Positions 4,943-22,296 of a DNA stretch of 64,000 bases are shown here, piece by piece; position 1 is the stretch's first letter, and each line of letters begins with the position of its first letter. Below the pieces are notes generated by a model, which saw only the letters and a list, made by a program, of their open reading frames with translations, did not search any database and was not told where the DNA came from. The stretch comes from Escherichia phage ALITA: sequence record PP359570, one strand, 5' to 3'. The position numbers were made by a program, and so were the translations under genes.

Positions 4943-4967
4943 TAAAGGAGGCTTTCGCCTCCTTTTA
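4943..4967 (-). terminator. rho-independent terminator hairpin (GGAGGC-GAAA-GCCTCC plus T-run)
   Basis: Perfect GC-rich inverted repeat followed by TTTATTTAT on minus strand, directly downstream of the ATPase gene. Confidence 0.55.
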
Positions 4968-4971
4968 TCAC

Positions 4972-6132
4972 TTAGTAAGAACGACCACCAAACACATACT
5001 CTGTGTAGTTTTTACGTTCTTTGTTTTTAATAACAACTTCAATGTTGTTGCCTTTATCATCGGTGAACACAAAGTGATAACCGTCACCACCCATTGTACG
5101 GATGTGTTTTTCATCATACGTCAGCAAGATACGGTCTACACCCCAGTAGTAGTCACCTTCTTCATCTTTGTCTTCTACTGTAACGACCCCTTCCATTTCA
5201 GGAAGATGCTCTTCTCCTAGCTTATGGTCTACAGCTACAACATAACGATTACCGCTAAACAAACCCTGTGCTGTCATACCGTCAATATCGGTATCTGCCG
5301 AAACATCTCCTGTACGATCTACACCGTTAACTTTCAGGAGTTTAACTTCTTTTGCAGCATAGCGGTGTTCAGTAATACTGATACCCATTAATGCAAGTGC
5401 ATCAGAGAATTTGTCATTAGGGTAACGGTTAAGTTCTTCTACTAGTGACTGAACAATATCAAAGTTCAAGTCCACGGAAAGATTATAAAGCGTTTCAAAA
5501 TCTGGTAAAAAGGCTTTGTTCTCCAGATTTTTAGCCAGATAGTCATCCATAGTAGCTTTAGGTAGTTTCTTATAGCTAAAACTGTAGAAAATACGGCTAG
5601 GACGATTACGCAAAAATTCTGATACATAACCATCATTTTTAGTCAATACAAACAGCTTGTCATAGCCACCTACACCATCCAGCAGAGTAAGCAAACCATC
5701 CTGTGCATCTTTTTCAGCATACAGTTTATCAAATTCATCGATCATAATCATCACAGGTTGTGTGATTTTAGACATAAAATTGATAAAGCCTTCGCCATTA
5801 AAAGCACTACCGATAGAAATAGTAGGAATACCCATTTCACGAAGAGCAGAAGACAGCATTTTAGCTTGCAAAGTTTTACCACTACCCTTCGTACCCTCAA
5901 GGAGAACACCTGTGTTTTTACCTTTGCGGCTAAGGAACGTCTTGATAATACGTTCTGATTTATCATCAGTATCACCGTATGTTACTGAAGGGACTTCCAT
6001 ATCGTTTTTAGGATACAGGAAGAACTCACCACTTTGAGTAACACCTACACCAAAAGTTCCTGCTGGAATTTCTTCAATATCTGTACCAGATTTCTGACGC
6101 AGGAAGATTTGATTGCCGAATACTGTAAACAT
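4972..6132 (-). CDS. P-loop NTPase (AAA-like ATPase), paralog A
   Basis: Walker A GTKGSGKT, Walker B-like MIMIDEFDK; N-terminal ~250 aa paralogous to 21127..22254. Confidence 0.6.
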   Translation of the reverse strand: MFTVFGNQIFLRQKSGTDIEEIPAGTFGVGVTQSGEFFLYPKNDMEVPSVTYGDTDDKSERIIKTFLSRKGKNTGVLLEGTKGSGKTLQAKMLSSALREMGIPTISIGSAFNGEGFINFMSKITQPVMIMIDEFDKLYAEKDAQDGLLTLLDGVGGYDKLFVLTKNDGYVSEFLRNRPSRIFYSFSYKKLPKATMDDYLAKNLENKAFLPDFETLYNLSVDLNFDIVQSLVEELNRYPNDKFSDALALMGISITEHRYAAKEVKLLKVNGVDRTGDVSADTDIDGMTAQGLFSGNRYVVAVDHKLGEEHLPEMEGVVTVEDKDEEGDYYWGVDRILLTYDEKHIRTMGGDGYHFVFTDDKGNNIEVVIKNKERKNYTEYVFGGRSY

Positions 6133-6152
6133 AGTTTTCTCCTCTATTTAAT

Positions 6153-6623
6153 TTAGTCAGATTCCCAAATGTTGTCTTTCTTAACCCACATTCGTTGATT
6201 ATCTGAACCTCTATAACGTTTCGTTGTTGGTTGATTCATATCATACTTACCATCTATCACTATGTCAACCAGTTTTTTAATTTTCTCTGGAATTTCTTCA
6301 AAAAGATATCCTGTATATAAGACAATATCTTTTTTGTTTCCAAAACAATCTCTTACCTTCTCAAGAACATACTCTACAGTGTCAATGTTCTCTTTGTCAA
6401 GAGGTTCACCACCTAAAACTGTTAATCCTTTAATGAAAGGTCGAGATAAATCTTCCAAGATAAGATCTAATGTTTCAGTAGTGAACTCTTGTCCGTAGTT
6501 ATACGACCAGGCTTTCTGGTTAAAGCAGCCACGGCAACCGTGGCTACAACCGCTCACCCACAAAGAGCATCTTACACCATCACCGTTGAGCATGTCAACA
6601 GGTTCATATCCGGCGTAATTCAA
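6153..6623 (-). CDS. nrdG: anaerobic ribonucleotide reductase activating protein (radical SAM)
   Basis: 156 aa, Cys cluster CSLWVSGCSHGCRGC, immediately downstream of and overlapping nrdD. Confidence 0.8.
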   Translation of the reverse strand: MNYAGYEPVDMLNGDGVRCSLWVSGCSHGCRGCFNQKAWSYNYGQEFTTETLDLILEDLSRPFIKGLTVLGGEPLDKENIDTVEYVLEKVRDCFGNKKDIVLYTGYLFEEIPEKIKKLVDIVIDGKYDMNQPTTKRYRGSDNQRMWVKKDNIWESD

Positions 6624-8419
6624 AAATGTTTCTCCCTTTCTAGTACCTCTTGCATTTTACCTTTATTATAAGGGCGAGAGTTAGGGGCAGAAAGGTATCC
6701 TGACACTCTTCTGATTACAGATATAGATTCTTCCTCATGATTGCCACAACTTGGACACTCGAAGCCTTTAGCTGTTGCCTTAAATTCACCATGAAAACCA
6801 CATTTGAAACACTGATCTACAGGTTGGTTCACGCCAAAATAAGGAATTTTGTTGTAGGCATAATCTACAAGAGTTTCCAGTGCTTGCAAGTTATTTTTAA
6901 GGTTTGGTGTTTCTACATAACCTATGTTCCCACCGTTACTGATTTGTGCAAAACCTTCCTCATAATCCCACTTTTGGAACGGGGTAGTGTGCATCCACAC
7001 AGGTTGATGGAAAGAGTTTGTCAAGTAGTCACGATCAATAGAACCAGGATAGCGATCATTTAATGCTTTGGCAAATTTATAGCACAAGGATTCTGCTGGT
7101 GTTCCATACAAACTAAAAGCTAAACCAGAACGTTCTTTAAATGTGCCACAGATATCCTTCATATATTGAAGGATGTTTTTACCCATTGCTTTTGGATTGG
7201 TGTTACCTGGGTATAAAATCTCCATAGCTTCTGCTAAACCTACATAACCGATACTAATAGAGGCATAACCACCTTCAAATAGTTTACCAATCTCTTCATT
7301 AGCTTCTAGTCGAGCTAAAGCCCCTTCCATAAACAATGTAGGGTTTTGAGATGCTTTGGTATGTCTAATACGGTTAACACGTAGCATATGTGCCTTATAC
7401 GCCACCTCCATATGTTGTTCCAACAGTTCAGTAAATAAGATGCCCTTTTCACGGGACTCTGCTGCAATGATAGGTAAGTTTAAAGAAACTACGCCTAAGT
7501 TGAAACGACCATCATATTTTTCACCTTGCTCTGTTGCATAGTATGACAAGAAGCTACGGCAACCCATGCTTGTGACGCGACCATCTGAAGATCCTGTAAC
7601 TTCTTTATTTAAAGGTACAGAGATAAAATCAGGATAAATGCGTTCAGCACAACACTCCATTGCCAGTTGCTTCAAATCATAGTTTGGATCGCCAGCTTTC
7701 ATGTTAACACCATCTTCCAAGAAGAAGATAACTTTAGGAAACACAGGAGTTACCCTATCTTTTCCCAATCCTTGTTTGTGCACCATTAGGTAGTTTTTAG
7801 TGATCATTCTACCAAAAGCAGAGGTATCCAAACCTAAACTAATTGTTATAAAAGGTGACTGACCATTTACACTCATTAGAGTGTTCACCTGGTAGATTAA
7901 AGTTTGCATTGCATCATAGACCTGTTTATCTACCATACGCATAGCAATATCATAATCGCCAACATCGGCATATATTTTATTAAAACTTGCTTTAACGTAT
8001 TGACTAAGCCCAGTATCAACATGTGCACAAGTTTGTCCACCATATTGGCTAGAAGCTACTGCTTGAATAATTTGAGTTAGGACAGTAGTCGCTACACCGA
8101 TAGATTTTGGTTTTTCAATATGTGCATTACCAATACGGAAACCGTTCTCAAGCATATCTTGGTAATTTACCAGGCAACAATTAGTTAAAGGTGAGAGTAA
8201 ATAATCTAAATCGTGAATGTGACCATACCCACTTTTATGCCATTCTGCCAGATCTTCCGGTAAAATATGGGTCATTGCCATGTGCTTGCTTAGGATACCT
8301 GCTAGTAAGTCTCGGTGAGTATTAACAATCATTGCAGGTTTGTTTGCATTTTCACGAGTAAATTCTTCGGATGTTTGTTCGAGGAATCCGATTACATCCT
8401 CATATAGTTTTTGGGTCAT
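6620..8419 (-). CDS. nrdD: anaerobic ribonucleoside-triphosphate reductase
   Basis: ~600 aa; C-terminal glycine-radical motif RRVSGYLS and Zn-ribbon Cys pairs (CFKCGF...CPSCG); start set at MTQKL with GGAGG RBS; uninterrupted (no intron). Confidence 0.85.
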   Translation of the reverse strand: MTQKLYEDVIGFLEQTSEEFTRENANKPAMIVNTHRDLLAGILSKHMAMTHILPEDLAEWHKSGYGHIHDLDYLLSPLTNCCLVNYQDMLENGFRIGNAHIEKPKSIGVATTVLTQIIQAVASSQYGGQTCAHVDTGLSQYVKASFNKIYADVGDYDIAMRMVDKQVYDAMQTLIYQVNTLMSVNGQSPFITISLGLDTSAFGRMITKNYLMVHKQGLGKDRVTPVFPKVIFFLEDGVNMKAGDPNYDLKQLAMECCAERIYPDFISVPLNKEVTGSSDGRVTSMGCRSFLSYYATEQGEKYDGRFNLGVVSLNLPIIAAESREKGILFTELLEQHMEVAYKAHMLRVNRIRHTKASQNPTLFMEGALARLEANEEIGKLFEGGYASISIGYVGLAEAMEILYPGNTNPKAMGKNILQYMKDICGTFKERSGLAFSLYGTPAESLCYKFAKALNDRYPGSIDRDYLTNSFHQPVWMHTTPFQKWDYEEGFAQISNGGNIGYVETPNLKNNLQALETLVDYAYNKIPYFGVNQPVDQCFKCGFHGEFKATAKGFECPSCGNHEEESISVIRRVSGYLSAPNSRPYNKGKMQEVLEREKHF

Positions 8420-8435
8420 TAATCCTCCGTGGAAA

Positions 8436-8462
8436 ATAAAAGCCAGCATTAAGCTGGCTTTA
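8436..8462 (-). terminator. rho-independent terminator-like hairpin
   Basis: AGCCAGC-TTAA-GCTGGCT stem-loop followed by TTTTATTTT on minus strand, between the 316-aa gene and the nrdD RBS. Confidence 0.45.
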
Positions 8463-8508
8463 GGGTGGATCTTTATTTTAAATCTTTTTCGTAAGATTGT
8501 CCTTGATC

Positions 8509-9459
8509 TTAGTCAAGGTTTTTGGTAATACGTGTACAACCATCAGAAGTCAAACCGTCAACTTGAGTTTCCCAAGTGCCATGAATATTTCGGAACAATG
8601 TTGTTACACCTTTTGGTTCATTAATAATGATTGCCATAACAAGTTTAGGATCGATAACAGACATAATCTTTTCCTCAATACCCTCTGTAATAACATTATT
8701 ACGCACAATATTAATTACATCTTCTTGTACAGAAAGGGTACTTACGTTCTTAAGAGTATATACCTGCTGCGTAGTGTAAATGATACGAACATAACTTACA
8801 GAACGAGTAGGCACAGGTTTACGCGGTCGGCGAAAACGTGGTTTTGGTGAAGATTCAGTCTTACTTTCATTTTTTGAATAATACTCCTCAAACAGTTTAG
8901 TAAATGTTTTTACATCAACTACAAACCGATCTTTCCTATATGGAGAATTCTTATGTGCACCATTAATACCACTGTTTTCATCGAAGAAAGTAATGTTTTC
9001 TTCAGTTGAATATGTTAGATAATGGTCTGCATCTTTCCAATGTGGTTGTGGACAATGCGGATTACAAACGGAAAGCAGATAACTAATATCTTCTTCCGTT
9101 GCACTAGTATCCAGGAAACACGTATTATGCACAGTCAGTTCTACTTTTGCAACCATATCCATTTCTTTATCCTCGTTGGCAAGATATTCAGTACGAATAA
9201 TCTCCAGAAAACCTTCAGGTGTTACTTCCATAAATGTGTATTCAGGGTGAAGTTCCATATATTCAAATCCACAACCATCTAATTGCTGTAGGAAGTTAGG
9301 ATAGAAGAACAAATCATTAACACTGTGAATCAGATCATTGATTTCTGCTTCAGTTGTGTAACCAAAACTCTTGTGAATTGCTTCGTTAAGAATATGCAGG
9401 ATACCCATCTCTTCTGCTGCTTTTTTAACTTCCAGTTTATTAGCGTAAAATGCAATCAT
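8509..9459 (-). CDS. hypothetical protein with basic KPRFRRPRKP segment
   Basis: 316-aa ORF in operon context; no recognisable catalytic motif. Confidence 0.5.
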   Translation of the reverse strand: MIAFYANKLEVKKAAEEMGILHILNEAIHKSFGYTTEAEINDLIHSVNDLFFYPNFLQQLDGCGFEYMELHPEYTFMEVTPEGFLEIIRTEYLANEDKEMDMVAKVELTVHNTCFLDTSATEEDISYLLSVCNPHCPQPHWKDADHYLTYSTEENITFFDENSGINGAHKNSPYRKDRFVVDVKTFTKLFEEYYSKNESKTESSPKPRFRRPRKPVPTRSVSYVRIIYTTQQVYTLKNVSTLSVQEDVINIVRNNVITEGIEEKIMSVIDPKLVMAIIINEPKGVTTLFRNIHGTWETQVDGLTSDGCTRITKNLD

Positions 9460-9476
9460 TATGTTCTCCTTCTAAA

Positions 9477-9911
9477 TTAGTTTAAAATTTCTTTTGCAAT
9501 GGTAGAAGCAAGTTTTCCATCATATTGATTCGGATACTCTGCTTTAAGGTGTTTCATCATATCTGGCATTTTCTTGCCTGTCAAGGCAAATTCTTCAGCA
9601 ATAGCTCGAAGATCATCTTCAGATAGCATTTCTGGCAAATATTTTTCCAGAGTGGTGATATCACGCATAGCTCGCTCACACTTGCTAATGGAGGCATTAA
9701 CTTTCTTAAGCGAGTCTAGTTCCTCTTTAGCGTGTGCAATACCAATCTTAACAATGTTAATCATAATATCGTCTTCTGATTTGTTTAGATTTGCCTTTTG
9801 AGTACGAGCAAGGTCAAACTCACCAATAATATTAGTTAACAAAGCAAAAGCACCTTTATCGGTTGTACGTGCTAAGATACGATCTGCTTTCATTTGTGTC
9901 ACAATAGACAT
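9477..9911 (-). CDS. GatB/YqeY-domain protein
   Basis: 144 aa, all-helical; C-terminal ...DGKLASTIAKEIL resembles the GatB/YqeY C-terminal signature. Confidence 0.5.
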   Translation of the reverse strand: MSIVTQMKADRILARTTDKGAFALLTNIIGEFDLARTQKANLNKSEDDIMINIVKIGIAHAKEELDSLKKVNASISKCERAMRDITTLEKYLPEMLSEDDLRAIAEEFALTGKKMPDMMKHLKAEYPNQYDGKLASTIAKEILN

Positions 9912-9923
9912 TCTATTCTCCTC

Positions 9924-10496
9924 TTATTTGCTAATGCTTTGAATCTTATTTACAACACGGTTTATTGCCAGTGAAGCCCTAGGCTCCGCAATACCTGTTG
10001 CATAGATATAAGGATGACCTCTTGGAGACTCCCTCATACCGAATGAACCTAATTCTAAACCATATTTATCCTCTACGTCAACCCCAATATTAGTGGGTAC
10101 TAAATATGTTTTAACTCCATAATAAGTAGAGAAGAAACAGCGCATAGCGTTAGCATACTCTTCAATTGTAGCATCAGGGTAGAACTCAATCAACTCCAAT
10201 TTCAAGAAAATATTGAAATGAGTGTCATCTAAATTTTCTTCTGTACGGTAACATGGTGTTAGTGCCATATAAGGATTACCTGCTGCAAATTCAAAACCAT
10301 CCTTCTCCATTTGCAGGAAAGATTGTTCTGCACTGGCTACATAGTATTTACCGTTAGGATGCCCTAATGGGCGATCCTCTTTATTTTCTGGTAGTGTGTA
10401 CGCCAGTATATCAGCATCCACGAGATATGGAACTTCCAACATTTGTGCAAACCGACCATAGTAATCAATAGCTTGAGCTATTACTTCAACATTCAT
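9924..10496 (-). CDS. minimal class II (IIb, AspRS/AsnRS/LysRS-type) aminoacyl-tRNA-synthetase-like catalytic core
   Basis: Motif-2-like TPCYRTEENLDDTHFNIFLKLELIEFY (compare c-FRxE...H-PEFT-lE-Y), preceding YYVASAEQSFLQ (compare fyaLpqSPQlfKQ) and EVPYL motif-1-like; only 190 aa, no anticodon-binding domain. Confidence 0.45.
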   Translation of the reverse strand: MNVEVIAQAIDYYGRFAQMLEVPYLVDADILAYTLPENKEDRPLGHPNGKYYVASAEQSFLQMEKDGFEFAAGNPYMALTPCYRTEENLDDTHFNIFLKLELIEFYPDATIEEYANAMRCFFSTYYGVKTYLVPTNIGVDVEDKYGLELGSFGMRESPRGHPYIYATGIAEPRASLAINRVVNKIQSISK

Positions 10497-10744
10497 GAGC
10501 GACCTCCATTGCGGAATGCACGTTTAGTAATGTTCGACATAGTGATCAAATCTTGAAGCGTCATATCAGGAAAATGCTGTTCAAGAACACCTTCAACAGC
10601 GCCTACAATATCTGATAACTCAATAAGTTGCATCAGCTTGCAATCTTGATCAATAGCATCCTGAAGTTCATAAAGCTCTTCTTGAATTTTAGCAATAGAA
10701 CCATATTCCTCTTTGCTAATCTCCTTCAAATGATACCCTGCCAC
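10493..10744 (-). CDS. hypothetical protein (possible MazG-like all-alpha NTP pyrophosphohydrolase)
   Basis: 83 aa; EE..E...E.LSDIVGAVEGVLE pattern is reminiscent of MazG-type EExxE motifs; weak. Confidence 0.35.
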   Translation of the reverse strand: MAGYHLKEISKEEYGSIAKIQEELYELQDAIDQDCKLMQLIELSDIVGAVEGVLEQHFPDMTLQDLITMSNITKRAFRNGGRS

Positions 10745-10754
10745 TTTAACCCCC

Positions 10755-13529
10755 TTAGTTTACCAGTTTATTTATATCTGGTAAAAGATTTATTTCACCT
10801 AAGAAATCACCTTCACCTTCCTCTAGCCAACTCTCATATGCTTGTGCATGATTATAGTTACCATCAAAAGAATCTGCAACAAATTTTTCTACAGTTTTTC
10901 GAGATGTGCCAGCACCAAATACACCAAGTTTAATACCATTGATCGGTAAAGTGGTGCTTGTGGGTACTTTCTCTGTTGCAACACGGTTGATATCTATAAT
11001 CTCCTGTACGGTTGTGTTCCATTGTAAGCATTTAACACAACGGGTATGCGCTACATACAGTAGGTTTCGCTCTGCCTCTTCCAGTCCTACCCATTCACCA
11101 GTCTTTTTATCATAGTTGGAAGGAAAATCATTAGCAACAATAACCTGATCCCACTCCAAACCTTTAGACTTGTGTGCTGTAGTCAGTGTGACTTTTGCTG
11201 TAGGAGAATTTCTATGCGTTCTAAGTGTATGTGCTATAGTGTTTGCCTTACCAGAAACTACGATGTTTAACAAGCGTTTAGCATCTGGATCAGCCTCTGC
11301 ACACTCAACAAATTCATCCCAGTCTGCGTAAGGTAATACAGTTTCATGTTTTACTTTCTCAATATCTCCTCTCCGAAGAGCATTAACACTATCTACCATA
11401 GAGATAAAATCCCTGGTATCTACGTTAATAATAATTTCTTCCCCATCTGCAATACGATCCATTGCCTCCATAAGCAAGGTTAAATTCTTGCGAAAGATGA
11501 TAGTGTAAGGTTTTGTATAGTCTACAACATCTGATTTGTAGCTACCTACTACAGTATCAAAGCCTTTACCAACCAAAGGATGACGCAAAGGTTCTTTATC
11601 GCTTAAAATCATATTGGCAATGTTTGCCACTTTGGGGCCAAAACGGAAGCAAGCAGTTAATGGAAGTTCTGCCCCATACTTAGCTGTTTCAATCATCATA
11701 TTAGAGCTACCTCTAAATTGATAAATGCAGTTGTGGCTAAGAATTTCATTGCCAAAGAAGTTAGCAGTATCCTCTACTTCAATATCATAATAGATACCCT
11801 CACTATCTACAATGTCCACAATCTCTTCTGCCGTTACAGTATCACCATCTTTTACCAACACAGACATGCCTTTAAACAAACCCGCTGCCGGAATTAAGTT
11901 ATATTTGGCACTGTTCACAGAGGACATGCATTCTTTTAAAGATGCAAACGGAACTATTTCAAGGATCTTTTGTGCAAAACTCAATGCTTCACGATAAGAA
12001 TTGAAATATTTACGTACACGGTAACGACCTTCCAATTTAGCAGCACTTACGCTTACACCTGCTTTAATCAGTGAAGAATAGATCGGCATTTCACTTTCTG
12101 TCCACTCAAAACTAACTTGTGTTCCTTTACAACCTTGTGCTCGCAAAGTCACTGTTAGCATTTTTCTTTCATCTACTGCACAATTGATGCTGTGCCAGTG
12201 TGGATAAGCAAAATGATAATCTTTATCCTCTAAAAGTTTAAAACCATTTTGTCCGAATTGTTCAAAGATGTTATTGATCCTTTCTTGATTAATGCCGCGT
12301 GAACTTGCTTCAAATACACAAGTAGGAATGCCATATTGTAAACTGTAAGCCATTTCTTTTTCCATAGCAGCTTCACGGTTTTCAACAATATCCAACACCC
12401 ATAATTTCTGTGCTTTTTCAGAACGTGTACGTTGCCCCAGTTTAGAAAAACCTTCTTTATCATCGAATTTGTTAGTGATCCCTACTCGGAAACCTAAATC
12501 TTTCCTCCACATTAGGTATACCACCATCTGATCATCTTTCAGAACATAGGATGAAGCCCAAATACGATGGTTATGTGTCATATCTAAAGTTTTACCTGTG
12601 GCAGTAATAATATTCCTACCTTTTGTACGTGTAGATAAAGTCTTATTTGTTACTTTTCTAAATGTAACTTTACCATTAGAATAAGACTCTACCTTATCAC
12701 CGATTTGCAGGTCTTTCATTGTAACCTGACCATTCTCGGTATTAAGTACCGTGTTTTCCGACACACATTGGAATTCATCGCCCACTACCACAATTTGTTT
12801 TGCAGATTTAGCATTTCGCAGAATAGACAAGAATGCAGGGTTAACATCCTGGAATTCATCACCAAAAATAATATCATAACCAAGATCAGCACCAGACAAT
12901 TCAAACAATTTTACATAGGTGTCATGCGTCATTAAAGTATCTGTGTTAGGATCGATGCGCTCTCGCCACAATTGTTTTGCATACTTAACTACTTCTGTAA
13001 TTAGTTTGTGTTCGTTAATACCTTTTCTTTTAATATCTGCAAGATGTACACTAGGAAAATGTTTACGGCTGATAAAAGGATCATCCGAAAATTCAAACTT
13101 ACCTACGGTTTGCTTGATCATTAAACCGATCATAGCACGAGTTAAAAGTGTTTTACCTCGTTTATCAATAAGATTATTAATCTTAAATTTCTTTGCTATC
13201 TCACTACCTGTACCTGCAACGTTAACATACTGTCCTTCTGGTCGTGACAGTTTTGCACGTAAACGATGATCCAGGAATTGATAGCAAATAGAATGCAATG
13301 TACGGCATTCTACATTTAGTGGCATCTTACGTCGTGCTTCTTCTGCCATGCTTTTATTGAAAGCTAAGTAAAGAATGCGATCTTCTGTACTGTTAGCCAG
13401 CAAATAAAGTGTTGACGTTTTGCCTGATCCAGATTTAGCTTGGATAGTTAAAAAGCGATGGTCTGGAAAAGCCTCCTTAATAGCTGTTTGCTCTTCTGTT
13501 GGAGTGAAGCTCAACTCTTTCTTAGCCAT
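10755..13529 (-). CDS. UvrD/PcrA-like SF1 DNA helicase, interrupted by an in-frame intein
   Basis: Walker A AKSGSGKTST, motif II GDEFQD; motif III split as VVVGDEFQ / CIYQFRGSS by a 346-aa insertion; start set at MAKKE with GAGAGG RBS. Confidence 0.8.
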   Translation of the reverse strand: MAKKELSFTPTEEQTAIKEAFPDHRFLTIQAKSGSGKTSTLYLLANSTEDRILYLAFNKSMAEEARRKMPLNVECRTLHSICYQFLDHRLRAKLSRPEGQYVNVAGTGSEIAKKFKINNLIDKRGKTLLTRAMIGLMIKQTVGKFEFSDDPFISRKHFPSVHLADIKRKGINEHKLITEVVKYAKQLWRERIDPNTDTLMTHDTYVKLFELSGADLGYDIIFGDEFQDVNPAFLSILRNAKSAKQIVVVGDEFQCVSENTVLNTENGQVTMKDLQIGDKVESYSNGKVTFRKVTNKTLSTRTKGRNIITATGKTLDMTHNHRIWASSYVLKDDQMVVYLMWRKDLGFRVGITNKFDDKEGFSKLGQRTRSEKAQKLWVLDIVENREAAMEKEMAYSLQYGIPTCVFEASSRGINQERINNIFEQFGQNGFKLLEDKDYHFAYPHWHSINCAVDERKMLTVTLRAQGCKGTQVSFEWTESEMPIYSSLIKAGVSVSAAKLEGRYRVRKYFNSYREALSFAQKILEIVPFASLKECMSSVNSAKYNLIPAAGLFKGMSVLVKDGDTVTAEEIVDIVDSEGIYYDIEVEDTANFFGNEILSHNCIYQFRGSSNMMIETAKYGAELPLTACFRFGPKVANIANMILSDKEPLRHPLVGKGFDTVVGSYKSDVVDYTKPYTIIFRKNLTLLMEAMDRIADGEEIIINVDTRDFISMVDSVNALRRGDIEKVKHETVLPYADWDEFVECAEADPDAKRLLNIVVSGKANTIAHTLRTHRNSPTAKVTLTTAHKSKGLEWDQVIVANDFPSNYDKKTGEWVGLEEAERNLLYVAHTRCVKCLQWNTTVQEIIDINRVATEKVPTSTTLPINGIKLGVFGAGTSRKTVEKFVADSFDGNYNHAQAYESWLEEGEGDFLGEINLLPDINKLVN
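11730..12767 (-). mobile_element. intein (346 aa) within helicase motif III
   Basis: Begins with Cys (CVSENTVL...), ends ...SHN followed by Cys; block-B-like TxxH (THNH); excision would restore contiguous GDEFQ-CIYQFRGS; size suggests an embedded homing-endonuclease domain. Confidence 0.7.
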
Positions 13530-13530
13530 T

Positions 13531-14007
13531 TCAACCTCTCTTAATTTGTTTAACAAGCATAGGAACAAAGTCTCGTTTTAAAATTTGTTCAATAATATGA
13601 TCAGGTAGCTGTTGGAAATTATAATTAAAAGCTACTGTCTCACCTTTAGGCGTTTCTACCCGCACATATAACATGTTACGAAGTTTATCAACTTGTGCTG
13701 TATATTCTAAACCATGTAATTGATGTAATGCAAACATCAAATCATCAGTTTCAGTTTGGAATCTATCCCTTCCCTGCATCAAGGACAAGGAAAAAGGTAG
13801 ATTTTCCCTAAGAGCCACCTTCTTAGGAACTAGTGAAGGAAAATACTCACCAATAACTTCCTGTGTAAGCTGGATACACTCTTTTTCAAGTTGGTTTTGT
13901 TCCTTAAGTTCACAAACACTTTTTTGTAAAGTGTTAACCTCTTTTTGCAAAGCTGCTAGTTGAGCACTTAACTTTCTTTTTTGATTACGACCAAAACGTT
14001 TAGACAT
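13531..14007 (-). CDS. hypothetical protein
   Basis: 158-aa ORF, coiled-coil-like N-terminus. Confidence 0.5.
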   Translation of the reverse strand: MSKRFGRNQKRKLSAQLAALQKEVNTLQKSVCELKEQNQLEKECIQLTQEVIGEYFPSLVPKKVALRENLPFSLSLMQGRDRFQTETDDLMFALHQLHGLEYTAQVDKLRNMLYVRVETPKGETVAFNYNFQQLPDHIIEQILKRDFVPMLVKQIKRG

Positions 14008-14015
14008 ATTTCCCC

Positions 14016-14531: not shown

Positions 14532-14552
14532 TATATTTTCCTTATTGGTTTA

Positions 14553-15282: not shown

Positions 15283-15283
15283 A

Positions 15284-15634
15284 TTAACCCAAACACATCT
15301 GTGCAATCAAGCCCTGTATAAATTTATTAGCTTCTTTACTGTCGTAATCAGTTTCTTCTGGATATCCATCTTCATCGTACACAACTGTACCTTCAATATA
15401 CCCTGCCTCAATTAAGGCACGGATCATATCAAATTGCCAGCATGAGTTACCAAATGGACGTTTACCATTAAAACACTCTTCTTCTCTCCATAACGTAGAG
15501 AGTAGTTGTCGGAAATATTCCCGTACAGTGACAGTACCAAGATCTGAATCCTCAAACATAACATCCAGGGCATCAGGATTGCTTTTCTCTACATAAGGAA
15601 TATATTTAACACCATTAATAGTTACATCAAGCAT
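15284..15634 (-). CDS. hypothetical protein
   Basis: 116-aa acidic ORF. Confidence 0.5.
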   Translation of the reverse strand: MLDVTINGVKYIPYVEKSNPDALDVMFEDSDLGTVTVREYFRQLLSTLWREEECFNGKRPFGNSCWQFDMIRALIEAGYIEGTVVYDEDGYPEETDYDSKEANKFIQGLIAQMCLG

Positions 15635-15997
15635 TTATTTCTCCTTATCATCATATTCTAGGAACATATCTGCACGATATGCTTTACGCTCTTCAAACTT
15701 AGCAGGATCTACAACAATAAGCAATACAAGGTTAACATCTAAATACTTCTTAACAAATAGAAATAAATCTTTTCCACAGTTAAAACCTACACCAGTATAG
15801 GCATCCCCATATTGATCTACTGATTTAATCTTCTTACTAACCGTACATTCTATGCTATTCTTTTCTTCTTGGTATAAGGCTTTCCCACCCCAATATGTAA
15901 AGAATTTAGTACCGTCAGCACCAAGTTTAAAACCTTCTGTTGCATGCCCAGCAAATGAAAGTAAACATAACCAAGTGATCATCAGGTACTTTAGCAT
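15635..15997 (-). CDS. putative secreted protein
   Basis: Start at MLKYLMITWLCLLSFAGHA (signal-peptide-like). Confidence 0.45.
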   Translation of the reverse strand: MLKYLMITWLCLLSFAGHATEGFKLGADGTKFFTYWGGKALYQEEKNSIECTVSKKIKSVDQYGDAYTGVGFNCGKDLFLFVKKYLDVNLVLLIVVDPAKFEERKAYRADMFLEYDDKEK

Positions 15998-15998
15998 T

Positions 15999-16481
15999 TT
16001 AACCACCCAATTGCAAATGTTTAGAAAGAACAATATCCCACTGATCACCACAACCGTTATCTATGCGGAACATAATGTACGTATCATCTTCTTCTACAAC
16101 ATATAACACCTCATAGGAATTACAACAGCCTTCCCAATTTTTAACAGCCTCTGGTGTGTCATGTGTAAAAATTTCATTACCATCATACGACCAAAACAAA
16201 GGGGTGAGGTTTTCGAACGTCAGTGAAGTAGGGTTCACTTCATCTTTAACTGCTTCCTCATACTCCTTATGCGTTTGTACTGCTTTAGTTAGTGTACTCA
16301 TGTCTATCTCCTTTTCTCCTTCTTGACTATGGAGGATAGCGAACTCTCTAAACTCCACTTCACGCCATGTTTTTAGGTAGTGCTTTATAATTTTATCAAC
16401 ATCTGCCTGTTCAACATTACTTTTCAAGCAATAGTAATCATGGTCTTCGCCCATTCTACCCCATATGCTATACCTTGTCAT
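15999..16481 (-). CDS. hypothetical protein
   Basis: 160-aa ORF. Confidence 0.5.
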   Translation of the reverse strand: MTRYSIWGRMGEDHDYYCLKSNVEQADVDKIIKHYLKTWREVEFREFAILHSQEGEKEIDMSTLTKAVQTHKEYEEAVKDEVNPTSLTFENLTPLFWSYDGNEIFTHDTPEAVKNWEGCCNSYEVLYVVEEDDTYIMFRIDNGCGDQWDIVLSKHLQLGG

Positions 16482-16749
16482 CTGATTGATCCTTTACATT
16501 GCTCTTGGTATACACAGGAATAACATCGTGTTGATCTTTATTACTTTCATCTGTTAAAGCCCAAAACAACTTACCTGCTGGATGTTTAAAGATATAGGCA
16601 ATAGGTTCCTCTTCCTGTGCTTCTTTGCTACGGATACCATCCCTCCAGGCAAGCCAAGTGTAGATCATCACTTCTTGACGTTCTTCTTCGTTAGGCCACA
16701 TATGTGGTGGGAAGGTTTTATCAAACCATTGCTTAAATTCTTCGGTCAT
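16468..16749 (-). CDS. hypothetical protein
   Basis: 93-aa ORF. Confidence 0.45.
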   Translation of the reverse strand: MTEEFKQWFDKTFPPHMWPNEEERQEVMIYTWLAWRDGIRSKEAQEEEPIAYIFKHPAGKLFWALTDESNKDQHDVIPVYTKSNVKDQSDDKV

Positions 16750-16759
16750 AATCTACTCC

Positions 16760-16924
16760 TTAGCGTACAAAGTTAACTTCTGCTTCTTTCAGCTTTGACA
16801 CTTCTACATAACCACCATGATCATCTTTAATCCATTCTTTTCCTTTACGGATGATAACAGGGTATGTAGAGTGAGTAAGTTTAGGTACAGATCTTTTTGT
16901 TTTAGTGATAGAAATGTTTTGCAT
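16760..16924 (-). CDS. hypothetical small basic protein (54 aa)
   Basis: Unlisted ORF MQNISITKTKRSVPK... with perfect AAGGAG RBS; coordinates approximate. Confidence 0.4.
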   Translation of the reverse strand: MQNISITKTKRSVPKLTHSTYPVIIRKGKEWIKDDHGGYVEVSKLKEAEVNFVR

Positions 16925-16984
16925 AGTAGTCTCCTTAGTAAATTTTACATAGAGTCTAGATTATTTAGTAGATAGAGTCAATAA

Positions 16985-17251
16985 CTAATTACTGTTAGAT
17001 CTGTATTCTGTCTTCCATTCGCAATGGTAAACTTCAACAGGTTCTAACTTCCAGTGTTCAGGAACTAATTCAGGGCAATATCTACAAAAGAGAAATAGAT
17101 AGATAATTAAGACAGGTATTAAATAGTAAAATGGTATACGATCATAACCATACTTACGAGATAACATGTAGACATATAGATAGGGTATAACAATTAATCC
17201 TATAACTATAAGTAAGAAGAGAAGTATAAACCTTAGTGTAGTAACATCCAT
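16985..17251 (-). CDS. small membrane protein
   Basis: 88 aa with two hydrophobic helices. Confidence 0.4.
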   Translation of the reverse strand: MDVTTLRFILLFLLIVIGLIVIPYLYVYMLSRKYGYDRIPFYYLIPVLIIYLFLFCRYCPELVPEHWKLEPVEVYHCEWKTEYRSNSN

Positions 17252-17415
17252 AGTATTCTCCTATACAGTAATATACTCTGTTCCTGCCCCTCCATGAGTG
17301 ACAGGAACAATATCTATAGAGAATACTAACTCGCTTCGCTCGTCACCTTTCAGGTTTAGGGTAGCATGTTTTTCTGAAAAAGTCAATACTCTCCACAAAA
17401 CTTTACAAAATACTT

Positions 17416-17688
17416 TTACATAGGTACAACAGAGTCTGTTTTGAAGTCGTACATATGATTTACACCTGTGATTTTTGACATAGAGATTGCACGTTTAGCA
17501 CCTGCAATTACCTGGTCTGTCTTCTTAATCTCTTCACGGAAATTACGTACAGTTAGAGAGAAGAAACGATGATCCATCCATTGACGATTCACACGATCAC
17601 GCTTGAAGTGACGGAAATCTTCAATCTGTTTATTGCGCAATCGGCGCAGTACATGCAATAATTTATAGTAAGGGTGTTTATTTTTCAT
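17416..17688 (-). CDS. hypothetical basic protein
   Basis: 90-aa ORF. Confidence 0.4.
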   Translation of the reverse strand: MKNKHPYYKLLHVLRRLRNKQIEDFRHFKRDRVNRQWMDHRFFSLTVRNFREEIKKTDQVIAGAKRAISMSKITGVNHMYDFKTDSVVPM

Positions 17689-17691
17689 AAT

Positions 17692-18120
17692 TTATTCTCC
17701 AAATCGAAAATCGTCAATATCATCAAACCATACACAATGGCGAGTCCTTTCTTTTTCTGTTGCAGACATTGTTTCAACAGCTTTAGGACTAAGCACAACA
17801 GGAATGTAACGAACAGGTCGTTCATAATAGTAGCCATACTTTTCTGTATTAGCTGCCTCAAAGACTTTACGGCGTTCTTCAAGATCTTCTATGGTGAATC
17901 CTACCATATAACCATCATGTTTGCTACCCCATCCTTCCTCACTTTCAACAATCGGGATATAAAAGCCGTTACGCGTCCCTGACGCTGGTTCTTCTTGAGC
18001 CTGAAGGCAAGCCTCCCATCCTGCTTTAAAGACGTTATAGAGCGATTTACGCACGTTATGAGTGCCGCTTTCGCTTGCTGGATAGAGTTCATTAAATTTA
18101 TCTTGGATTTGTTGCGTCAT
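17692..18120 (-). CDS. hypothetical protein
   Basis: 142-aa ORF. Confidence 0.5.
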   Translation of the reverse strand: MTQQIQDKFNELYPASESGTHNVRKSLYNVFKAGWEACLQAQEEPASGTRNGFYIPIVESEEGWGSKHDGYMVGFTIEDLEERRKVFEAANTEKYGYYYERPVRYIPVVLSPKAVETMSATEKERTRHCVWFDDIDDFRFGE

Positions 18121-18263
18121 ACTCGCCCCTTAGTGATTATTTGACCAGCTAAACAAATAGCTTGCAGTACAGTAAAGAAGTAGCCTAATTTTACACTACC
18201 TAATACCCAGAATGCAATGTTTGCAAACAAACAGAAAGCAATATTAAGTCTAAAGAATAACAT

Positions 18264-18530
18264 TTAATCCCCTTCGTATTTAGGTAAAGGCATATATGCC
18301 ACAATAGGAGGGTAATCAAAGTGAAAATGATGGTTCACCACAATAATCTTACCAGACATACTTTTATGCACTTCACAATACCCTTTTCCACCATCTTCCA
18401 TTACCACCACATACTCACCTAGTGGGATATCGTATGGATCTTCTACTTTTACCCATTCTGTCATTTTGTAAACTCCTCGTAGTAAGGTAAAGCCTTGATC
18501 AGTTGTTCTGAAGTGCCATTTTGCACCCAC
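18264..18530 (-). CDS. hypothetical protein
   Basis: 88-aa ORF. Confidence 0.45.
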   Translation of the reverse strand: MGAKWHFRTTDQGFTLLRGVYKMTEWVKVEDPYDIPLGEYVVVMEDGGKGYCEVHKSMSGKIIVVNHHFHFDYPPIVAYMPLPKYEGD

Positions 18531-18596
18531 GTAACACCATTGTCAACAGAAACATACCCTTTTTTGTCAATAAATTTACGCAGACAGCCAGTGAAC

Positions 18597-18776
18597 TTAT
18601 TTTTGTAGATCATTTCTTCTTTCCTTTTTGATTACAGCCCCATCACTCCCTTGCCAAACTTCCGATCTGAATTCCATCTCAAACCACTCACCACCGCAAA
18701 AACGGCTATGTTCAACACGTCTATCTTCCTTCATTGCTTCTTTAGCTTCGATAGAAGTTAGTTCGATGTTTTGCAT
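18597..18776 (-). CDS. hypothetical small protein
   Basis: Start at MQNIEL with AAAGGAG RBS (the longer track ORF has an implausible N-terminus). Confidence 0.4.
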   Translation of the reverse strand: MQNIELTSIEAKEAMKEDRRVEHSRFCGGEWFEMEFRSEVWQGSDGAVIKKERRNDLQK

Positions 18777-18894
18777 TTGTTTTTCTCCTTTCATTTGGTA
18801 TGCGCTAATCTTAACAAAATAAAAATGTATGTCAATACTTGATTTGAAATTAGTTTCTGGTACTCTGTGTGTATCGTAACAAAAGAGGTTAGAT
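18777..18894. promoter_or_regulatory. divergent intergenic control region at the strand switch
   Basis: AT-rich 118-bp gap between leftward and rightward gene blocks; promoter boxes not resolved. Confidence 0.35.
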
Positions 18895-19185
18895 ATGAAC
18901 ATCACACTAGCAACTAAGAATATTACAGAAACTTTTGATGGTTTTGGCATTATTATTGCTGTTCATGGGCATAACGAAAAATGGTTAGCCTCTTTTGAAG
19001 AGGACAAAGAACGCAATGTACGTTTGAATGCACCAATCAAAGTTTTACACCAGGTAGGTGAGAATAAGAAACAATGGAGATCATACAAAGAGTGGAACAT
19101 TACGAACGAGTTAATACACAAACTTGACAAAGTGATAAACATGTTCGACAATGCACCAAGCAGTGCAAAACGTGTTTTACTATAA
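18895..19185 (+). CDS. hypothetical protein
   Basis: 96-aa ORF. Confidence 0.5.
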   Translation: MNITLATKNITETFDGFGIIIAVHGHNEKWLASFEEDKERNVRLNAPIKVLHQVGENKKQWRSYKEWNITNELIHKLDKVINMFDNAPSSAKRVLL

Positions 19186-19196
19186 AGGAGAGTGAT

Positions 19197-19550
19197 ATGA
19201 AAATTGTACACGATGAAATTCAATTTGAAGACAGTGATCTTCTTGATCTGGATGTGACACTAAGTAAACTGATCTACAACGCACTTTCTGCATATCGTGC
19301 AAAAGTGATAGCCACAAACAATGTTAAAATTCCTAGTGGGTTACTTCGTCGGATGTACCCACACGCTAAAGGTGACTATCTACCTTATATGGAAGAACGA
19401 GCAGCAGAACACTGGTTAGAAATTCTTGAAAAAATGGAGTCCTCTTTTAAAGATTCAACTCCACCGGAAGAAGTTAATGAAAAACAACGGCAAGAGCGTT
19501 TAGAAGGTCGTATTTTGTTTGCTAAGTATTTCCATAATTTGTGGAGCTAA
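19197..19550 (+). CDS. hypothetical protein
   Basis: 117-aa ORF. Confidence 0.5.
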   Translation: MKIVHDEIQFEDSDLLDLDVTLSKLIYNALSAYRAKVIATNNVKIPSGLLRRMYPHAKGDYLPYMEERAAEHWLEILEKMESSFKDSTPPEEVNEKQRQERLEGRILFAKYFHNLWS

Positions 19551-19626
19551 ACATATCTGGTAAAATCACTTATATGTTCTTAGTATACTTGTGTAAAGAA
19601 GTTATCGGTCTAATTAAGGGGAAGAT

Positions 19627-19878
19627 ATGATTCAGTTTCAAAAAGGTCAAAAGATGACAGTTCACAATGCAGAGGAAATGGAATTTGCACTTAAACTTCT
19701 CGAAAATGCTGGGTTTGTGTGGATCAACGGTGGAGAGAAGCCTACAGCTTGGCTTCCACATGAGAAAATAGCCAACCACACCTTTCCTGATAGTATCAAT
19801 TGGCATTCTGATGGTAAGATTTGCCGTGGAAGTTACCCAACAGGTGTTGAGTGGACTATTAAATTAGGAGGGCTTTAA
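19627..19878 (+). CDS. hypothetical protein
   Basis: 83-aa ORF with GGGGAAG RBS. Confidence 0.5.
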   Translation: MIQFQKGQKMTVHNAEEMEFALKLLENAGFVWINGGEKPTAWLPHEKIANHTFPDSINWHSDGKICRGSYPTGVEWTIKLGGL

Positions 19879-19879
19879 T

Positions 19880-20218
19880 ATGTTTAGTAAAGAAATGAGA
19901 GAAGTAATTGCCACTTTGGTAGTTGATCATGGTGTTGAAGTTGAGCGTCACGTTTGGAACGATGAACCTCCTTTCTTCGATTTGGCATCACGAGCTAAAA
20001 GTCATATGCACCTGCTGGAAGACGGTAATGAGTTTGTTCTCCGTATGCGTTATGATCGAGAGTTTCGAATTCCGCTTGACACTGAACCAGATGGTGTAGT
20101 AATGTGGTTGGCAGAACATTTCGCATACGATGCACTACATGGAAGAAGTTTTGGTAATGAGCGTTGGGATGCCATTTGTCGTAAGCATAATATTGAACCA
20201 GAGTACGGGAGTATGTAA
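19880..20218 (+). CDS. hypothetical protein
   Basis: 112-aa ORF. Confidence 0.5.
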   Translation: MFSKEMREVIATLVVDHGVEVERHVWNDEPPFFDLASRAKSHMHLLEDGNEFVLRMRYDREFRIPLDTEPDGVVMWLAEHFAYDALHGRSFGNERWDAICRKHNIEPEYGSM

Positions 20219-20469
20219 TGTTAAGTATCAAACCTAAAATGATAACGGAAGATGAAGCAGACTTTATTTTCAAATGTGGACGTGTATGGAGAGAATTCAC
20301 AAAAGGAAATGAAGTGGTTGTTGTTGTCGAACACAAGATATCTATCCAGGATCTGTTTGGACAATATGTTGATGTTATTAAATTAGGTATTGACAAGGGT
20401 TTAGTTGAGGTGTTAACATTAGATCAAGTTGAAGCAGAGCACCTCGATAAAGTAGTGGTTGAATTTTAA
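20218..20469 (+). CDS. hypothetical protein
   Basis: 83-aa ORF, ATGT overlap with upstream gene. Confidence 0.5.
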   Translation: MLSIKPKMITEDEADFIFKCGRVWREFTKGNEVVVVVEHKISIQDLFGQYVDVIKLGIDKGLVEVLTLDQVEAEHLDKVVVEF

Positions 20470-20489
20470 AATACAGACGGGAGAAAGGT

Positions 20490-20663
20490 ATGAGTTTCTT
20501 TGTTACAGTATTTATGGCTATCTGGATTGTAGTCTCACTCGTTCTTTTCCTGGTGGGTTGTCTGGAAGAGATTAAGAAAGCGGTTATTTGCGGTTTCTTT
20601 GGCTTTATTATCTCTCCTGCCTGGATGTGGTTCTTCATTATGATTGGTTTCCTTAAAAGGTAA
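20490..20663 (+). CDS. small membrane protein (57 aa)
   Basis: Unlisted ORF MSFFVTVFMAIWIVVSLVLFLVGC...; GGGAGAAAGG RBS. Confidence 0.4.
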   Translation: MSFFVTVFMAIWIVVSLVLFLVGCLEEIKKAVICGFFGFIISPAWMWFFIMIGFLKR

Positions 20664-20677
20664 GTGAGGAATAAAGA

Positions 20678-21115
20678 ATGAGTAAAACAAACGCAATTGC
20701 AGATAAAGCAACGGATGTACTTCTGAACATGGTTAACGTCACTATTCAAACAATGAGTGATGTTGTAGAGTTTGGAAAACAACAAATTCCAGAAGTAATC
20801 CATCAATTATTAGTGTGGAAAGCAGTATCCGCAGGTTTATGGCAACTTTTTAGTATTTGCTTTATGTTTATTACTTTTATTGCTGTGCGGAACCTCGTAA
20901 AAGCAATTAAAGATAAAGAATGCCTGTGGTCACGAGATCGCTATGGTGAAGTATCTGCTTTACCTATTGTTGGTCTTGTTGTCTGTGCTTTCTTTTTCTT
21001 TTTAGGATTTGTTATTTTCTTTTCGAATTTTGATTGGCTAAAAATCATTATTGCACCAAAAGTGTATCTGATTGAATTTGCTGCTGATTTAATTCGTTCA
21101 TCTCAACAAAAATAA
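20678..21115 (+). CDS. membrane protein
   Basis: 145 aa with several TM helices. Confidence 0.5.
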   Translation: MSKTNAIADKATDVLLNMVNVTIQTMSDVVEFGKQQIPEVIHQLLVWKAVSAGLWQLFSICFMFITFIAVRNLVKAIKDKECLWSRDRYGEVSALPIVGLVVCAFFFFLGFVIFFSNFDWLKIIIAPKVYLIEFAADLIRSSQQK

Positions 21116-21126
21116 AAGGGGTTAAA

Positions 21127-22254
21127 ATGAAATACACGATTTATGGTGATATTGTAAGTGTAAATAAAGATATGGGCGTGGAATCTAACTATCTTCCACC
21201 TGGATTCTATACTGTTAGTCGTGATCCCCTTGGCAATTATTTTTTAAGCCGTGGTAATCTAACAGGTGTACCGGATGTTTTGTATGGTGAAACAGAAAAA
21301 CGAGCAAATCACGTTATCCGTACATTCCATCGCCGGAGTGCACAAGGTAAAAACACAGGCTTGCTTCTGACAGGAACTAAGGGCAGTGGTAAAACTATGT
21401 TAGCCAAACTCATTAGTCGTGACCTTGTAGAAGAAGGTATTCCAACTATTATGGTTACTCAAGCCTACAGCGATGCTAATTTCATTGAACTTATTAGCAA
21501 GATCACCGACAAAGCAGTGATTATTTTTGACGAGTTTGATAAAGTATATGAGAAGAAACAAGATCAAGAAGCACTTCTCACTTTGTTAGATGGTACTGGG
21601 AGTGGTAATAAACTGTTTATTCTAACTAAAAACAGTGGTTTTATCTCTGAATTCTTTTTAAATCGTCCTAGTCGTGTGTTTTATAATTTTAATTATGATA
21701 AAATCTCACTAGAAACTATGATTGACTATTTAGATAAAAACTTGGATAACAAAGCACACTTTGATAATTTCCAAAGGCTTTGGGATGTAAGTTTAGAGTT
21801 GTCCTTTGATGTGATCCAAGGTATAGTAGAAGAACTTAATTTCTACCCTGATTTATCCTTTAAAGAATGCATCTCTATGATGGGCGTTTCTTTGGGTGGT
21901 GGTAATAAATGGGATATCAGCAGCGTTGTTATTAATGGAAAACTTCAGAAAGTTAGCTGGGTATCTAGTTGGCATAACTTCACACCTGCAATCTTCTTAG
22001 GTGGCTCGTGCACACTAGACGTGTACTTGTCATCTCCAAGTGATGCAGACTCTAAAGAAGCCCTTGCTAATAGCTCTTACGTGGTTTTTGATGATGAAGG
22101 CGATGCTCGAATTCCATTGAATGCGACAAAAATGAAAGCAGATCTTATTACAGGCGGTAAAATCGTTGTGTTTAGTGATGATCCAGAAGATTCTTTCCGT
22201 ATTGTTCTGGAACCAACTATCACCAATGGTGCAACTTTGGCAAGCGTGTTTTAA
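21127..22254 (+). CDS. P-loop NTPase (AAA-like ATPase), paralog B
   Basis: Walker A GTKGSGKT, Walker B VIIFDEFDK; N-terminal ~250 aa alignable to 4972..6132 product; C-terminus divergent. Confidence 0.6.
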   Translation: MKYTIYGDIVSVNKDMGVESNYLPPGFYTVSRDPLGNYFLSRGNLTGVPDVLYGETEKRANHVIRTFHRRSAQGKNTGLLLTGTKGSGKTMLAKLISRDLVEEGIPTIMVTQAYSDANFIELISKITDKAVIIFDEFDKVYEKKQDQEALLTLLDGTGSGNKLFILTKNSGFISEFFLNRPSRVFYNFNYDKISLETMIDYLDKNLDNKAHFDNFQRLWDVSLELSFDVIQGIVEELNFYPDLSFKECISMMGVSLGGGNKWDISSVVINGKLQKVSWVSSWHNFTPAIFLGGSCTLDVYLSSPSDADSKEALANSSYVVFDDEGDARIPLNATKMKADLITGGKIVVFSDDPEDSFRIVLEPTITNGATLASVF

Positions 22255-22267
22255 GTAAGCCAGCAAA

Positions 22268-22296
22268 TAAAAACCCGCTTCGGCGGGTTTTCTTGT
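22268..22296 (+). terminator. rho-independent terminator (AAACCCGC-TTCG-GCGGGTTT plus T-run)
   Basis: Perfect hairpin followed by TTTCTTGTAT; same sequence recurs near 47227 and, inverted, near 51595. Confidence 0.7.

Follow-up and report, generated by a model that had tools for sequence, protein, structure and literature searches.

Phages related to phi92 carry two genes, gp190 and gp221, that belong to a family of phage ATPases, PHROG 2376 (labelled 'ATPase'). Members of this family are found in large phages, among them phAPEC8, the GAP32/BF-type jumbo phages, Salmonella phage 7-11 and phages of Aeromonas and Acinetobacter, and also in Lactococcus phage 949, Bastille-like Bacillus phages, Enterococcus and Lactobacillus phages and some crAss-like phages. 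They are mostly single-copy; two copies are present in phi92-like phages, in Klebsiella relatives and, in tandem, in Lactobacillus phage LpeD. The GenBank labels of the phi92-type orthologues are 'predicted AAA domain fold; putative ATPase or Zn metalloprotease', 'ATPase' and 'FtsH-like protease', and the records of phi92 and its relatives give no paralogy analysis, domain architecture or function for either gene. Here we describe the pair in a 64,000-nucleotide stretch of Escherichia phage ALITA (sequence record PP359570), referred to below as the window, where they form two open reading frames (ORFs), A and B (Table 1). ORF A is 99.5% identical to phi92 gp190 (CBY99619) and ORF B is 100% identical to phi92 gp221 (CBY99650; both from GenBank FR775895). 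Order and strands are alike in phi92 and in the Justusliebigvirus orthologues, and the ∼20-kb stretch around the two genes shows 97-98% DNA identity to Justusliebigvirus genomes, among them vB_EcoM_ZYD, PHB05, PD06 and phi92. The source phage is a phi92-like E. coli myovirus (Justusliebigvirus), and A and B are previously annotated genes of a familiar enzyme class rather than a new kind of system.

A first-pass annotation, made from the letters of the window, had proposed that the N-terminal ∼250 residues of A and B can be aligned and hold a conserved motor encoded twice, and that their C-terminal ∼120 residues are unrelated. The first part of this proposal is borne out. BLASTP aligns residues 2-253 of A with residues 3-256 of B at 119 identities in 254 (47%), 70% positives and E=1e-81, a likeness well past what generic Walker motifs or chance would give, and finds no match past residue ∼255. 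The motifs that had been quoted are in place, GTKGSGKT and LLTLLDG in both proteins, LFVLTKN and NRPSRIFY in A, LFILTKN and NRPSRVFY in B; only the Walker B pattern (I/M)DEFDK needs amending, as it fits A (IMIDEFDK) but not B (IIFDEFDK), in which F precedes DEFDK. Both proteins match the PHROG 2376 profile end to end (for A, E=3.6e-104, with residues 1-376 covering positions 2-359 of 363; for B, E=6.6e-108, with residues 1-367 covering positions 1-357). Our conclusion from these alignments is that A and B are true, anciently diverged paralogs of one phage AAA+ family.

In a comparison of three near-identical genomes, nonsynonymous differences number 0-1 and synonymous ones 8-17 in the first 257 codons of A and B; for the C-terminal part of A the counts are 1-5 and 3-10. 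Given how few the nonsynonymous differences are beside the synonymous ones in both genes, we conclude from these counts that A and B are functional and under strong purifying selection, and the idea of a conserved motor kept in two copies stands. Looking for positive selection in the C-domain of A across three close genomes, we found more nonsynonymous change there, still less than synonymous, which does not indicate omega >1. A Shine-Dalgarno-like sequence lies upstream of the start of B, as it does for A. The phi92 GenBank record also places a 'hypothetical tRNA' antisense inside gp190 (phi92 locus 18642-18729; window ∼5400-5490), and this looks spurious, given that ARAGORN finds no tRNA in the whole 64-kb window.

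The second part of the proposal, that the C-termini are unrelated, does not survive closer comparison. Metagenomic homologues of an intermediate clade (P0041-46, 368 amino acids; clade C) cover at least 95% of both A and B, and the C-domain of A alone matches one of them, P0041, at E=2e-4. With hhalign, the C-domain alignment of clade C pairs with that of A at a probability of 94.7% (E=1.3e-8) and with that of B at 92.8% (E=5.5e-8), while A and B paired directly give 49.6% (E=2.6e-5). In a joint alignment the C-domains have several features in common: h-x-h-x-V-N-G, P..L..G, an acidic D-x-D-E loop, G..hhF, GD..EIV and a terminal aromatic residue. In the AlphaFold (AF2) models the secondary structure of the two C-domains agrees at 87 of 113 aligned positions, compared with 32-48% for shifted controls, and the order of strands and helices is the same. 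Taking together the full-length match to PHROG 2376, the hhalign results, the joint alignment and the matching secondary structure, we conclude from sequence and models that the C-domains of A and B are highly diverged homologues of the same beta-rich domain.

The two proteins have diverged unevenly along their length. Between A and B, identity is 26% in the N-domain, 52% in the AAA module with its lid and 14% in the C-domain; between A and its orthologues the corresponding ranges are 42-82%, 78-90% and 27-54%. Thus the 'variable C-terminal specificity domains' of the first-pass annotation are right in so far as the C-domain is the fastest-evolving part, and wrong in that this is one homologous domain rather than two unrelated ones, and the N-terminal beta domain has diverged as well. 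A C-domain profile found nothing among PDB sequences (best E=0.14), and against 1.84 billion representatives it found only its own phi92/phAPEC8-like subfamily together with repetitive surface proteins, the latter being compositional noise. An aromatic residue is present in the last four positions of 175 of 199 full-length family members, against 35% in control windows. Examples of such tails are ...SVF, ...RVW, ...GRSY and ...MFDGK, and they stand out because the domain before them is hypervariable. In the models the tail has lower predicted local distance difference test (pLDDT) values. The aromatic tail resembles the docking or ring-stabilising tails of other AAA proteins and may, by this analogy, be taken as a lead.

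The AF2 models (pLDDT 88.9 for A and 90.7 for B) divide each protein into four parts: a family-specific N-terminal five-strand beta domain, the AAA large subdomain, a four-helix lid, and a beta-rich C-domain, likewise family-specific, with a flexible aromatic tail. A Foldseek search of BFVD with the B model aligns 380-436 columns of phage homologues at template modelling (TM) scores of 0.6-0.78 and only 19-36% identity. Since these matches are full-length at such low identity, the three-part architecture is family-wide, common also to distant members. No relative of the N-domain was found by a profile search of the PDB, in which the best match was a TEV-tag artefact. In a phmmer search, residues 201-291 of B (21727-21999), which cover the lid helices and the first C-domain strands, matched chains of the influenza NS1 effector domain weakly (E from 8e-4 to 5e-3); these matches are probably due to chance, as the secondary structure of NS1 does not fit that of B.

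The first-pass annotation had left the fold of the ATPase to be placed, and both sequence and Foldseek searches return classic-clade AAA modules as top matches. PF00004 scores 29.4 bits against A and 38.9 bits against B (gathering cut-off 21.2), and a Pfam scan of the two proteins found nothing beyond this AAA core. Among PDB sequences p97 D2, fidgetin-like 1 and spastin match best, the RPSR motif lining up with the RPGR of p97, and the top folds are Bcs1 (E=3e-10), Rpt subunits, YjoB and FtsH, bacterial Trip13 also being among the nearest structures. Across 125 homologues G80/G83/G85/K86, D132/E133, N166 (sensor-1), R177 and R180 are invariant, and position 111, in pore-loop-1, is Y, F or W in 108. 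The motors of A and B retain all the residues for ATP hydrolysis between subunits: the Walker A Lys, the Walker B Asp-Glu, the sensor-1 Asn and the RPxR arginines. Because PF00004, RPxR, sensor-1, the pore-loop aromatic and the PDB matches are together hallmarks of classic AAA ring-forming protein remodellers, we conclude, from motifs and models, that A and B are classic-clade AAA+ ATPases.

It is scarcely credible to us that A and B are FtsH-like ATP-dependent Zn metalloproteases, the reading implied by those GenBank records that name a 'putative ATPase or Zn metalloprotease' or an 'FtsH-like protease'. FtsH AAA modules are indeed among the fold matches. As an FtsH or M41 Zn metalloprotease, however, each protein was tried and rejected: HEXXH is absent, there is no Pfam peptidase match, and the region past the lid is a beta-rich domain of ∼120 residues. 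An FtsH-type membrane anchor was likewise rejected, the N-terminus being a five-strand beta domain in both models with no transmembrane helix predicted. Since HEXXH, peptidase domain and membrane anchor are all absent, the protease annotations are unsupported, and we conclude from sequence and models that these database labels are wrong.

How might the two motors be used? Our reading, which we find moderately probable, is that A and B are two ring-shaped protein remodellers. Each protein would assemble into a ring, and the ring would spend ATP on pulling at, unfolding or remodelling a target protein. Which substrate or partner is engaged would depend on the N-terminal beta domain and the variable C-domain, and the two copies would have become subfunctionalised toward different substrates or partners during infection. 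The suggestion of the first-pass annotation, that these may be two related machines with different targets or partners, is a reasonable one. It is the combination of a well-kept motor, drifted N- and C-domains, and purifying selection on both genes from which we infer subfunctionalised copies.

Several points weigh against this reading. For no member of the family is a substrate, partner, oligomeric state or ATPase activity on record, and a literature search found no paper on gp190/gp221, PHROG 2376 or the family. In the pore-loop the residues run aromatic-polar-Gly/Asp, in contrast to the canonical aromatic-hydrophobic-Gly. The higher rate of change in the C-domain could reflect relaxed constraint rather than specificity, with a rough omega for the C-terminal part of A well below 1. 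Clustering of neighbouring genes (1,821 ORFs from 81 loci in 28 lineages) gave a best family present in 6 of 28, at varying positions. By hand, the search for a conserved partner among neighbours in phAPEC8, a C-clade contig, Serratia phage BF, Salmonella phage 7-11, Lactococcus phage 949 and Bacillus phage Bcp1 met only differing PHROGs. Since no neighbour family is kept across lineages, the ATPase is a stand-alone gene.

Of a different kind among these points are weak matches to loaders of the replication machinery, both in PHROG (families of clamp loaders and of DnaC-like loaders, E from 1e-8 to 1e-5) and in NCBIfam (Hda 29.8 bits against a cut-off of 194.8, PRK08116 27.5 against 189, IstB 19.9 against 200). 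They are the ground for supposing that A and B are DNA-replication AAA+ loaders of the DnaC/helicase-loader or clamp-loader type, the two copies serving two complexes in replication or repair; 'DNA replication protein' is the name that source records give to two homologues, and A sits in a block with nrdDG and a UvrD-like helicase. We rate this as improbable. The loader-type matches are confined to the generic P-loop core and lie far under the family cut-offs, whereas the RPxR double arginine, the LLxxxDG segment and a PF00004 score over threshold are features of the classic clade. Specific marks of loaders are absent: the motif is RPSR rather than SRC, and the segment between strand 2 and helix 2 has only ∼6 residues. 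The best sequence and fold matches are protein remodellers, and across the 28 lineages no gene for a helicase, clamp or polymerase is kept as a neighbour. All NCBIfam matches of A and B are P-loop matches below threshold, and the PADLOC defence models gave no significant match, the best being mad8 at E=8.5e-4 and 16.9 bits, over the P-loop only.

Returning to A and B as a pair of remodellers, we can ask which of the copies is the older resident. Family-matching records number 302-379 among 50,697 searched, so that the family is present in hundreds of large phages, with Gram-negative as well as Gram-positive hosts. In species genomes a scan found 26 loci, almost all of them on contigs of metagenome-assembled genomes, and the family is thus rare in cellular genomes. 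Isolate bacterial genomes with a member are those of Pararhizobium sp. BT-229 (on a 1.6-Mb contig) and Vreelandella venusta, at 32-36% identity, possibly within prophages. In phAPEC8, which belongs to the sister genus, there is one copy, 64% identical to B and in a like context of small ORFs, then the ATPase, then a CapR-type endonuclease. There, nrdG directly abuts an orthologue (49% identity) of the small gene downstream of A (the gp189 orthologue). Because nrdG and this orthologue are adjacent in phAPEC8, A fills a slot that is empty there. We conclude from this synteny that B is the ancestral copy and A an additional one.

A neighbour-joining (NJ) analysis of the first 250 residues (246 columns, 40 bootstraps), in which clades C and D are metagenomic, groups A, B, C and D as monophyletic relative to other phage homologues in 35 of 40 bootstraps. 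Within this group B joins D in 39 of 40 and A joins C in 23 of 40, and A is never the sister of B alone (0/40). A is thus an old extra copy, its origin being either a duplication followed by relocation or a transfer from some close relative. On the second account, which concerns the origin of A and not its function, A was acquired by recombination from a related phage with a C-clade-like gene, and A and B are xenologues. We regard this as possible, if tentatively: A groups with the C clade rather than with B, it is inserted cleanly, as one gene, between nrdG and the orthologue of gp189, and in a ∼154-kb phage contig the C-clade gene itself follows a strand switch, in a position like that of B. 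The monophyly of A-D, however, means that any donor was a close relative, and NJ on 246 columns does not separate an old duplication with relocation from transfer.

Two copies have also arisen elsewhere. In the Lactobacillus phage LpeD (Herelleviridae), the adjacent genes orf98 and orf99 (18775-21062) encode proteins that are 38% identical over ∼280 amino acids, with C-termini that BLAST does not align, and that carry the canonical NRPGRF motif. The LpeD pair is, to judge from its sequences, an independent tandem duplication with the same pattern of divergence.

In the window, A and B are 15 kb apart on opposite strands, in separate transcription units with their own terminators. B closes a rightward run of small ORFs that starts at a strand switch near 18.85 kb, and A closes a leftward block with the UvrD-like helicase and nrdD/nrdG. 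The strand-switch region listed in Table 1 is probably the start of both the rightward small-ORF operon that ends in B and the leftward block. A strong terminator-like hairpin directly follows each ATPase gene, so each gene ends a transcription unit; the hairpin 3' of A overlaps the ribosome-binding site (GGAGG) of the gene that comes next. Promoter-like sites show no enrichment relative to shuffled sequences, so expression timing is inferred from layout alone.

Several neighbouring genes vary among close relatives. The window nrdD (6620-8449, minus) is an uninterrupted ORF of 609 amino acids, without the intervening sequence of phi92 nrdD, which the phi92 record splits into gp192/gp193 as a 'spliced variant' (intron). 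The UvrD-like helicase ORF (10755-13568, minus) has 937 amino acids and is called 'intein-containing UvrD' in a close relative, while the phAPEC8 orthologue has 530; this size gap is what one would expect, as far as the sequences go, if the gene of the phi92-like lineage held an intein or a large insertion. At 19550-19880, in the operon upstream of B, there are ∼230 extra bases compared with PHB05 and an additional 83-amino-acid ORF (19627-19878). The same slot in phi92 has another arrangement (the 552-nt gp217), so that it varies among near-identical genomes. The gene 3' of B (22329-23735, plus) encodes 468 amino acids with four CapR homology repeats, a weak T5orf172 (GIY-YIG-like) match and a match to PHROG 681 ('endonuclease'); in PHB05 and phi92 this CapR-repeat gene encodes 390-396, its length thus varying among close relatives. 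In other phages, tRNA genes adjoin the homologues of Serratia BF, Lactococcus 949 and Salmonella 7-11. Homologues elsewhere lie, at varying positions, near genes judged by eye, from sequence rather than by a search of families, to be of RNA-repair or nucleotide-salvage type, namely Pnkp/RNA ligase, macro domain, metallophosphoesterase, P-loop kinase and 5'-nucleotidase.

Table 1. Positions in the window of ORFs A and B, of their predicted parts and motifs, and of the signals that flank them
Feature	Position	Strand	Remarks
Terminator-like hairpin after A	4944..4965	minus	9-bp stem and T-rich tail; within 20 nt after the A stop
ORF A	4972..6132	minus	386 aa (amino acids), ATG start; AAA+ ATPase paralog
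A C-terminal tail	4975-4992	minus	
A C-terminal beta-rich domain (aa 254-386)	4975..5373	minus	fast-evolving; aromatic tail ...GGRSY
A helical lid (aa 191-253)	5374..5562	minus	AF2 helices 192-202, 206-218, 224-236, 242-248
A AAA large alpha/beta subdomain (aa 51-190)	5563..5982	minus	from motifs and sequence matches
A sensor-1 and RPxR	5584-5649	minus	VLTKN...NRPSRIFY
A Walker B	5725-5748	minus	IMIDEFDK
A pore-loop-1	5785-5811	minus	GSAFNGEGF
A Walker A	5872-5895	minus	GTKGSGKT
A N-terminal five-strand beta domain (aa 1-50)	5983..6132	minus	AF2 strands 2-5, 8-11, 17-19, 26-31, 37-42
Shine-Dalgarno sequence of A	6139..6144	minus	GAGGAG, upstream of the A ATG; nrdG stop codon at 6153-6155
Strand-switch region	18808..18839	both	sigma-70-like hexamers, consensus matches only
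ORF B	21127..22254	plus	375 aa, ATG start; AAA+ ATPase paralog
B N-terminal five-strand beta domain (aa 1-50)	21127..21276	plus	from AF2
B AAA large subdomain	21277..21705	plus	from motifs and sequence matches
B Walker A	21373-21396	plus	GTKGSGKT
B pore-loop-1	21457-21483	plus	TQAYSDANF
B Walker B	21520-21543	plus	IIFDEFDK
B sensor-1 and RPxR	21619-21684	plus	
B helical lid subdomain	21706..21894	plus	from AF2
B C-terminal beta-rich domain (aa 257-375)	21895..22251	plus	ends ...LASVF
B C-terminal tail	22237-22251	plus	
Terminator-like hairpin after B	22270..22291	plus	AAAACCCGCTTCGGCGGGTTTT; 9-bp stem; within 20 nt after B

A further reading of the whole family can be drawn by analogy, and we give it little credence at present. 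Bacterial Trip13 acts on HORMA proteins. In a similar way the PHROG 2376 proteins might be phage unfoldases or disassemblases that serve host takeover or counter-defence, in which recognition of a host protein or an immune complex would be the task of the hypervariable C-domain (and of the N-domain), the family-wide aromatic tail would dock the ring on a conserved partner such as a host peptidase of the ClpP or HslV type, and the two copies of phi92-like phages would mean two host targets. What suggests it is the architecture, together with an early-type gene context, a C-domain that evolves fast and a tail that is conserved, and it has no direct support otherwise. Classic AAA unfoldases are central cellular machines. 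If it is true that the family acts early in infection to remodel proteins of the host or the phage, it would be a takeover or assembly factor that is widespread and has gone unrecognised, and the phi92 pair and the independent LpeD pair would be natural experiments in retargeting a motor. The present analysis also corrects the database labels, the proteins not being proteases, and supplies the domain boundaries and the catalytic residues needed to make trap mutants.

Among described systems, A and B are closest to the classic AAA remodellers: the Bcs1 AAA module (6u1y, 8tby), p97/Cdc48 D2, Rpt/PAN/Mpa, the FtsH module, spastin/fidgetin and CBASS Trip13 (6p8v). With these they have in common the AAA fold, Walker A and B, the sensor-1 Asn, RPxR, LLxxxDG and the pore-loop aromatic, and they would be expected to work alike, by forming rings and acting on a protein substrate at the cost of ATP. 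They differ from the same proteins in that their N- and C-domains have no detectable counterpart there, in having neither a second AAA ring nor a protease domain, and in their non-canonical pore-loop. Nor are they Bcs1 proteins, since no Bcs1_N domain or transmembrane anchor precedes the AAA module.

As a pair, A and B invite comparison with Pex1/Pex6, Rpt1-6, Yta10/Yta12 and Ycf2-FtsHi, which are also duplicated classic AAA motors with diverged accessory domains. Paralogous AAA hetero-rings (Ycf2-FtsHi and the 26S Rpt subunits) are among the structural matches of A and B, every listed phage record with an A-type gene (at least 75% identity) also holds a second copy, and the motor and inter-subunit arginines are conserved in both proteins, all of which would suit a single machine, a mixed ring built from both proteins, with A and B as different faces of one remodeller. 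We think this arrangement unlikely, because B-type genes function alone in all phAPEC8-like phages and because A and B are encoded far apart, on opposite strands and in different transcription units. Pex1/Pex6, Rpt1-6, Yta10/Yta12 and Ycf2-FtsHi are obligate hetero-rings, whereas B-type proteins occur alone and the genes for A and B lie in separate units.

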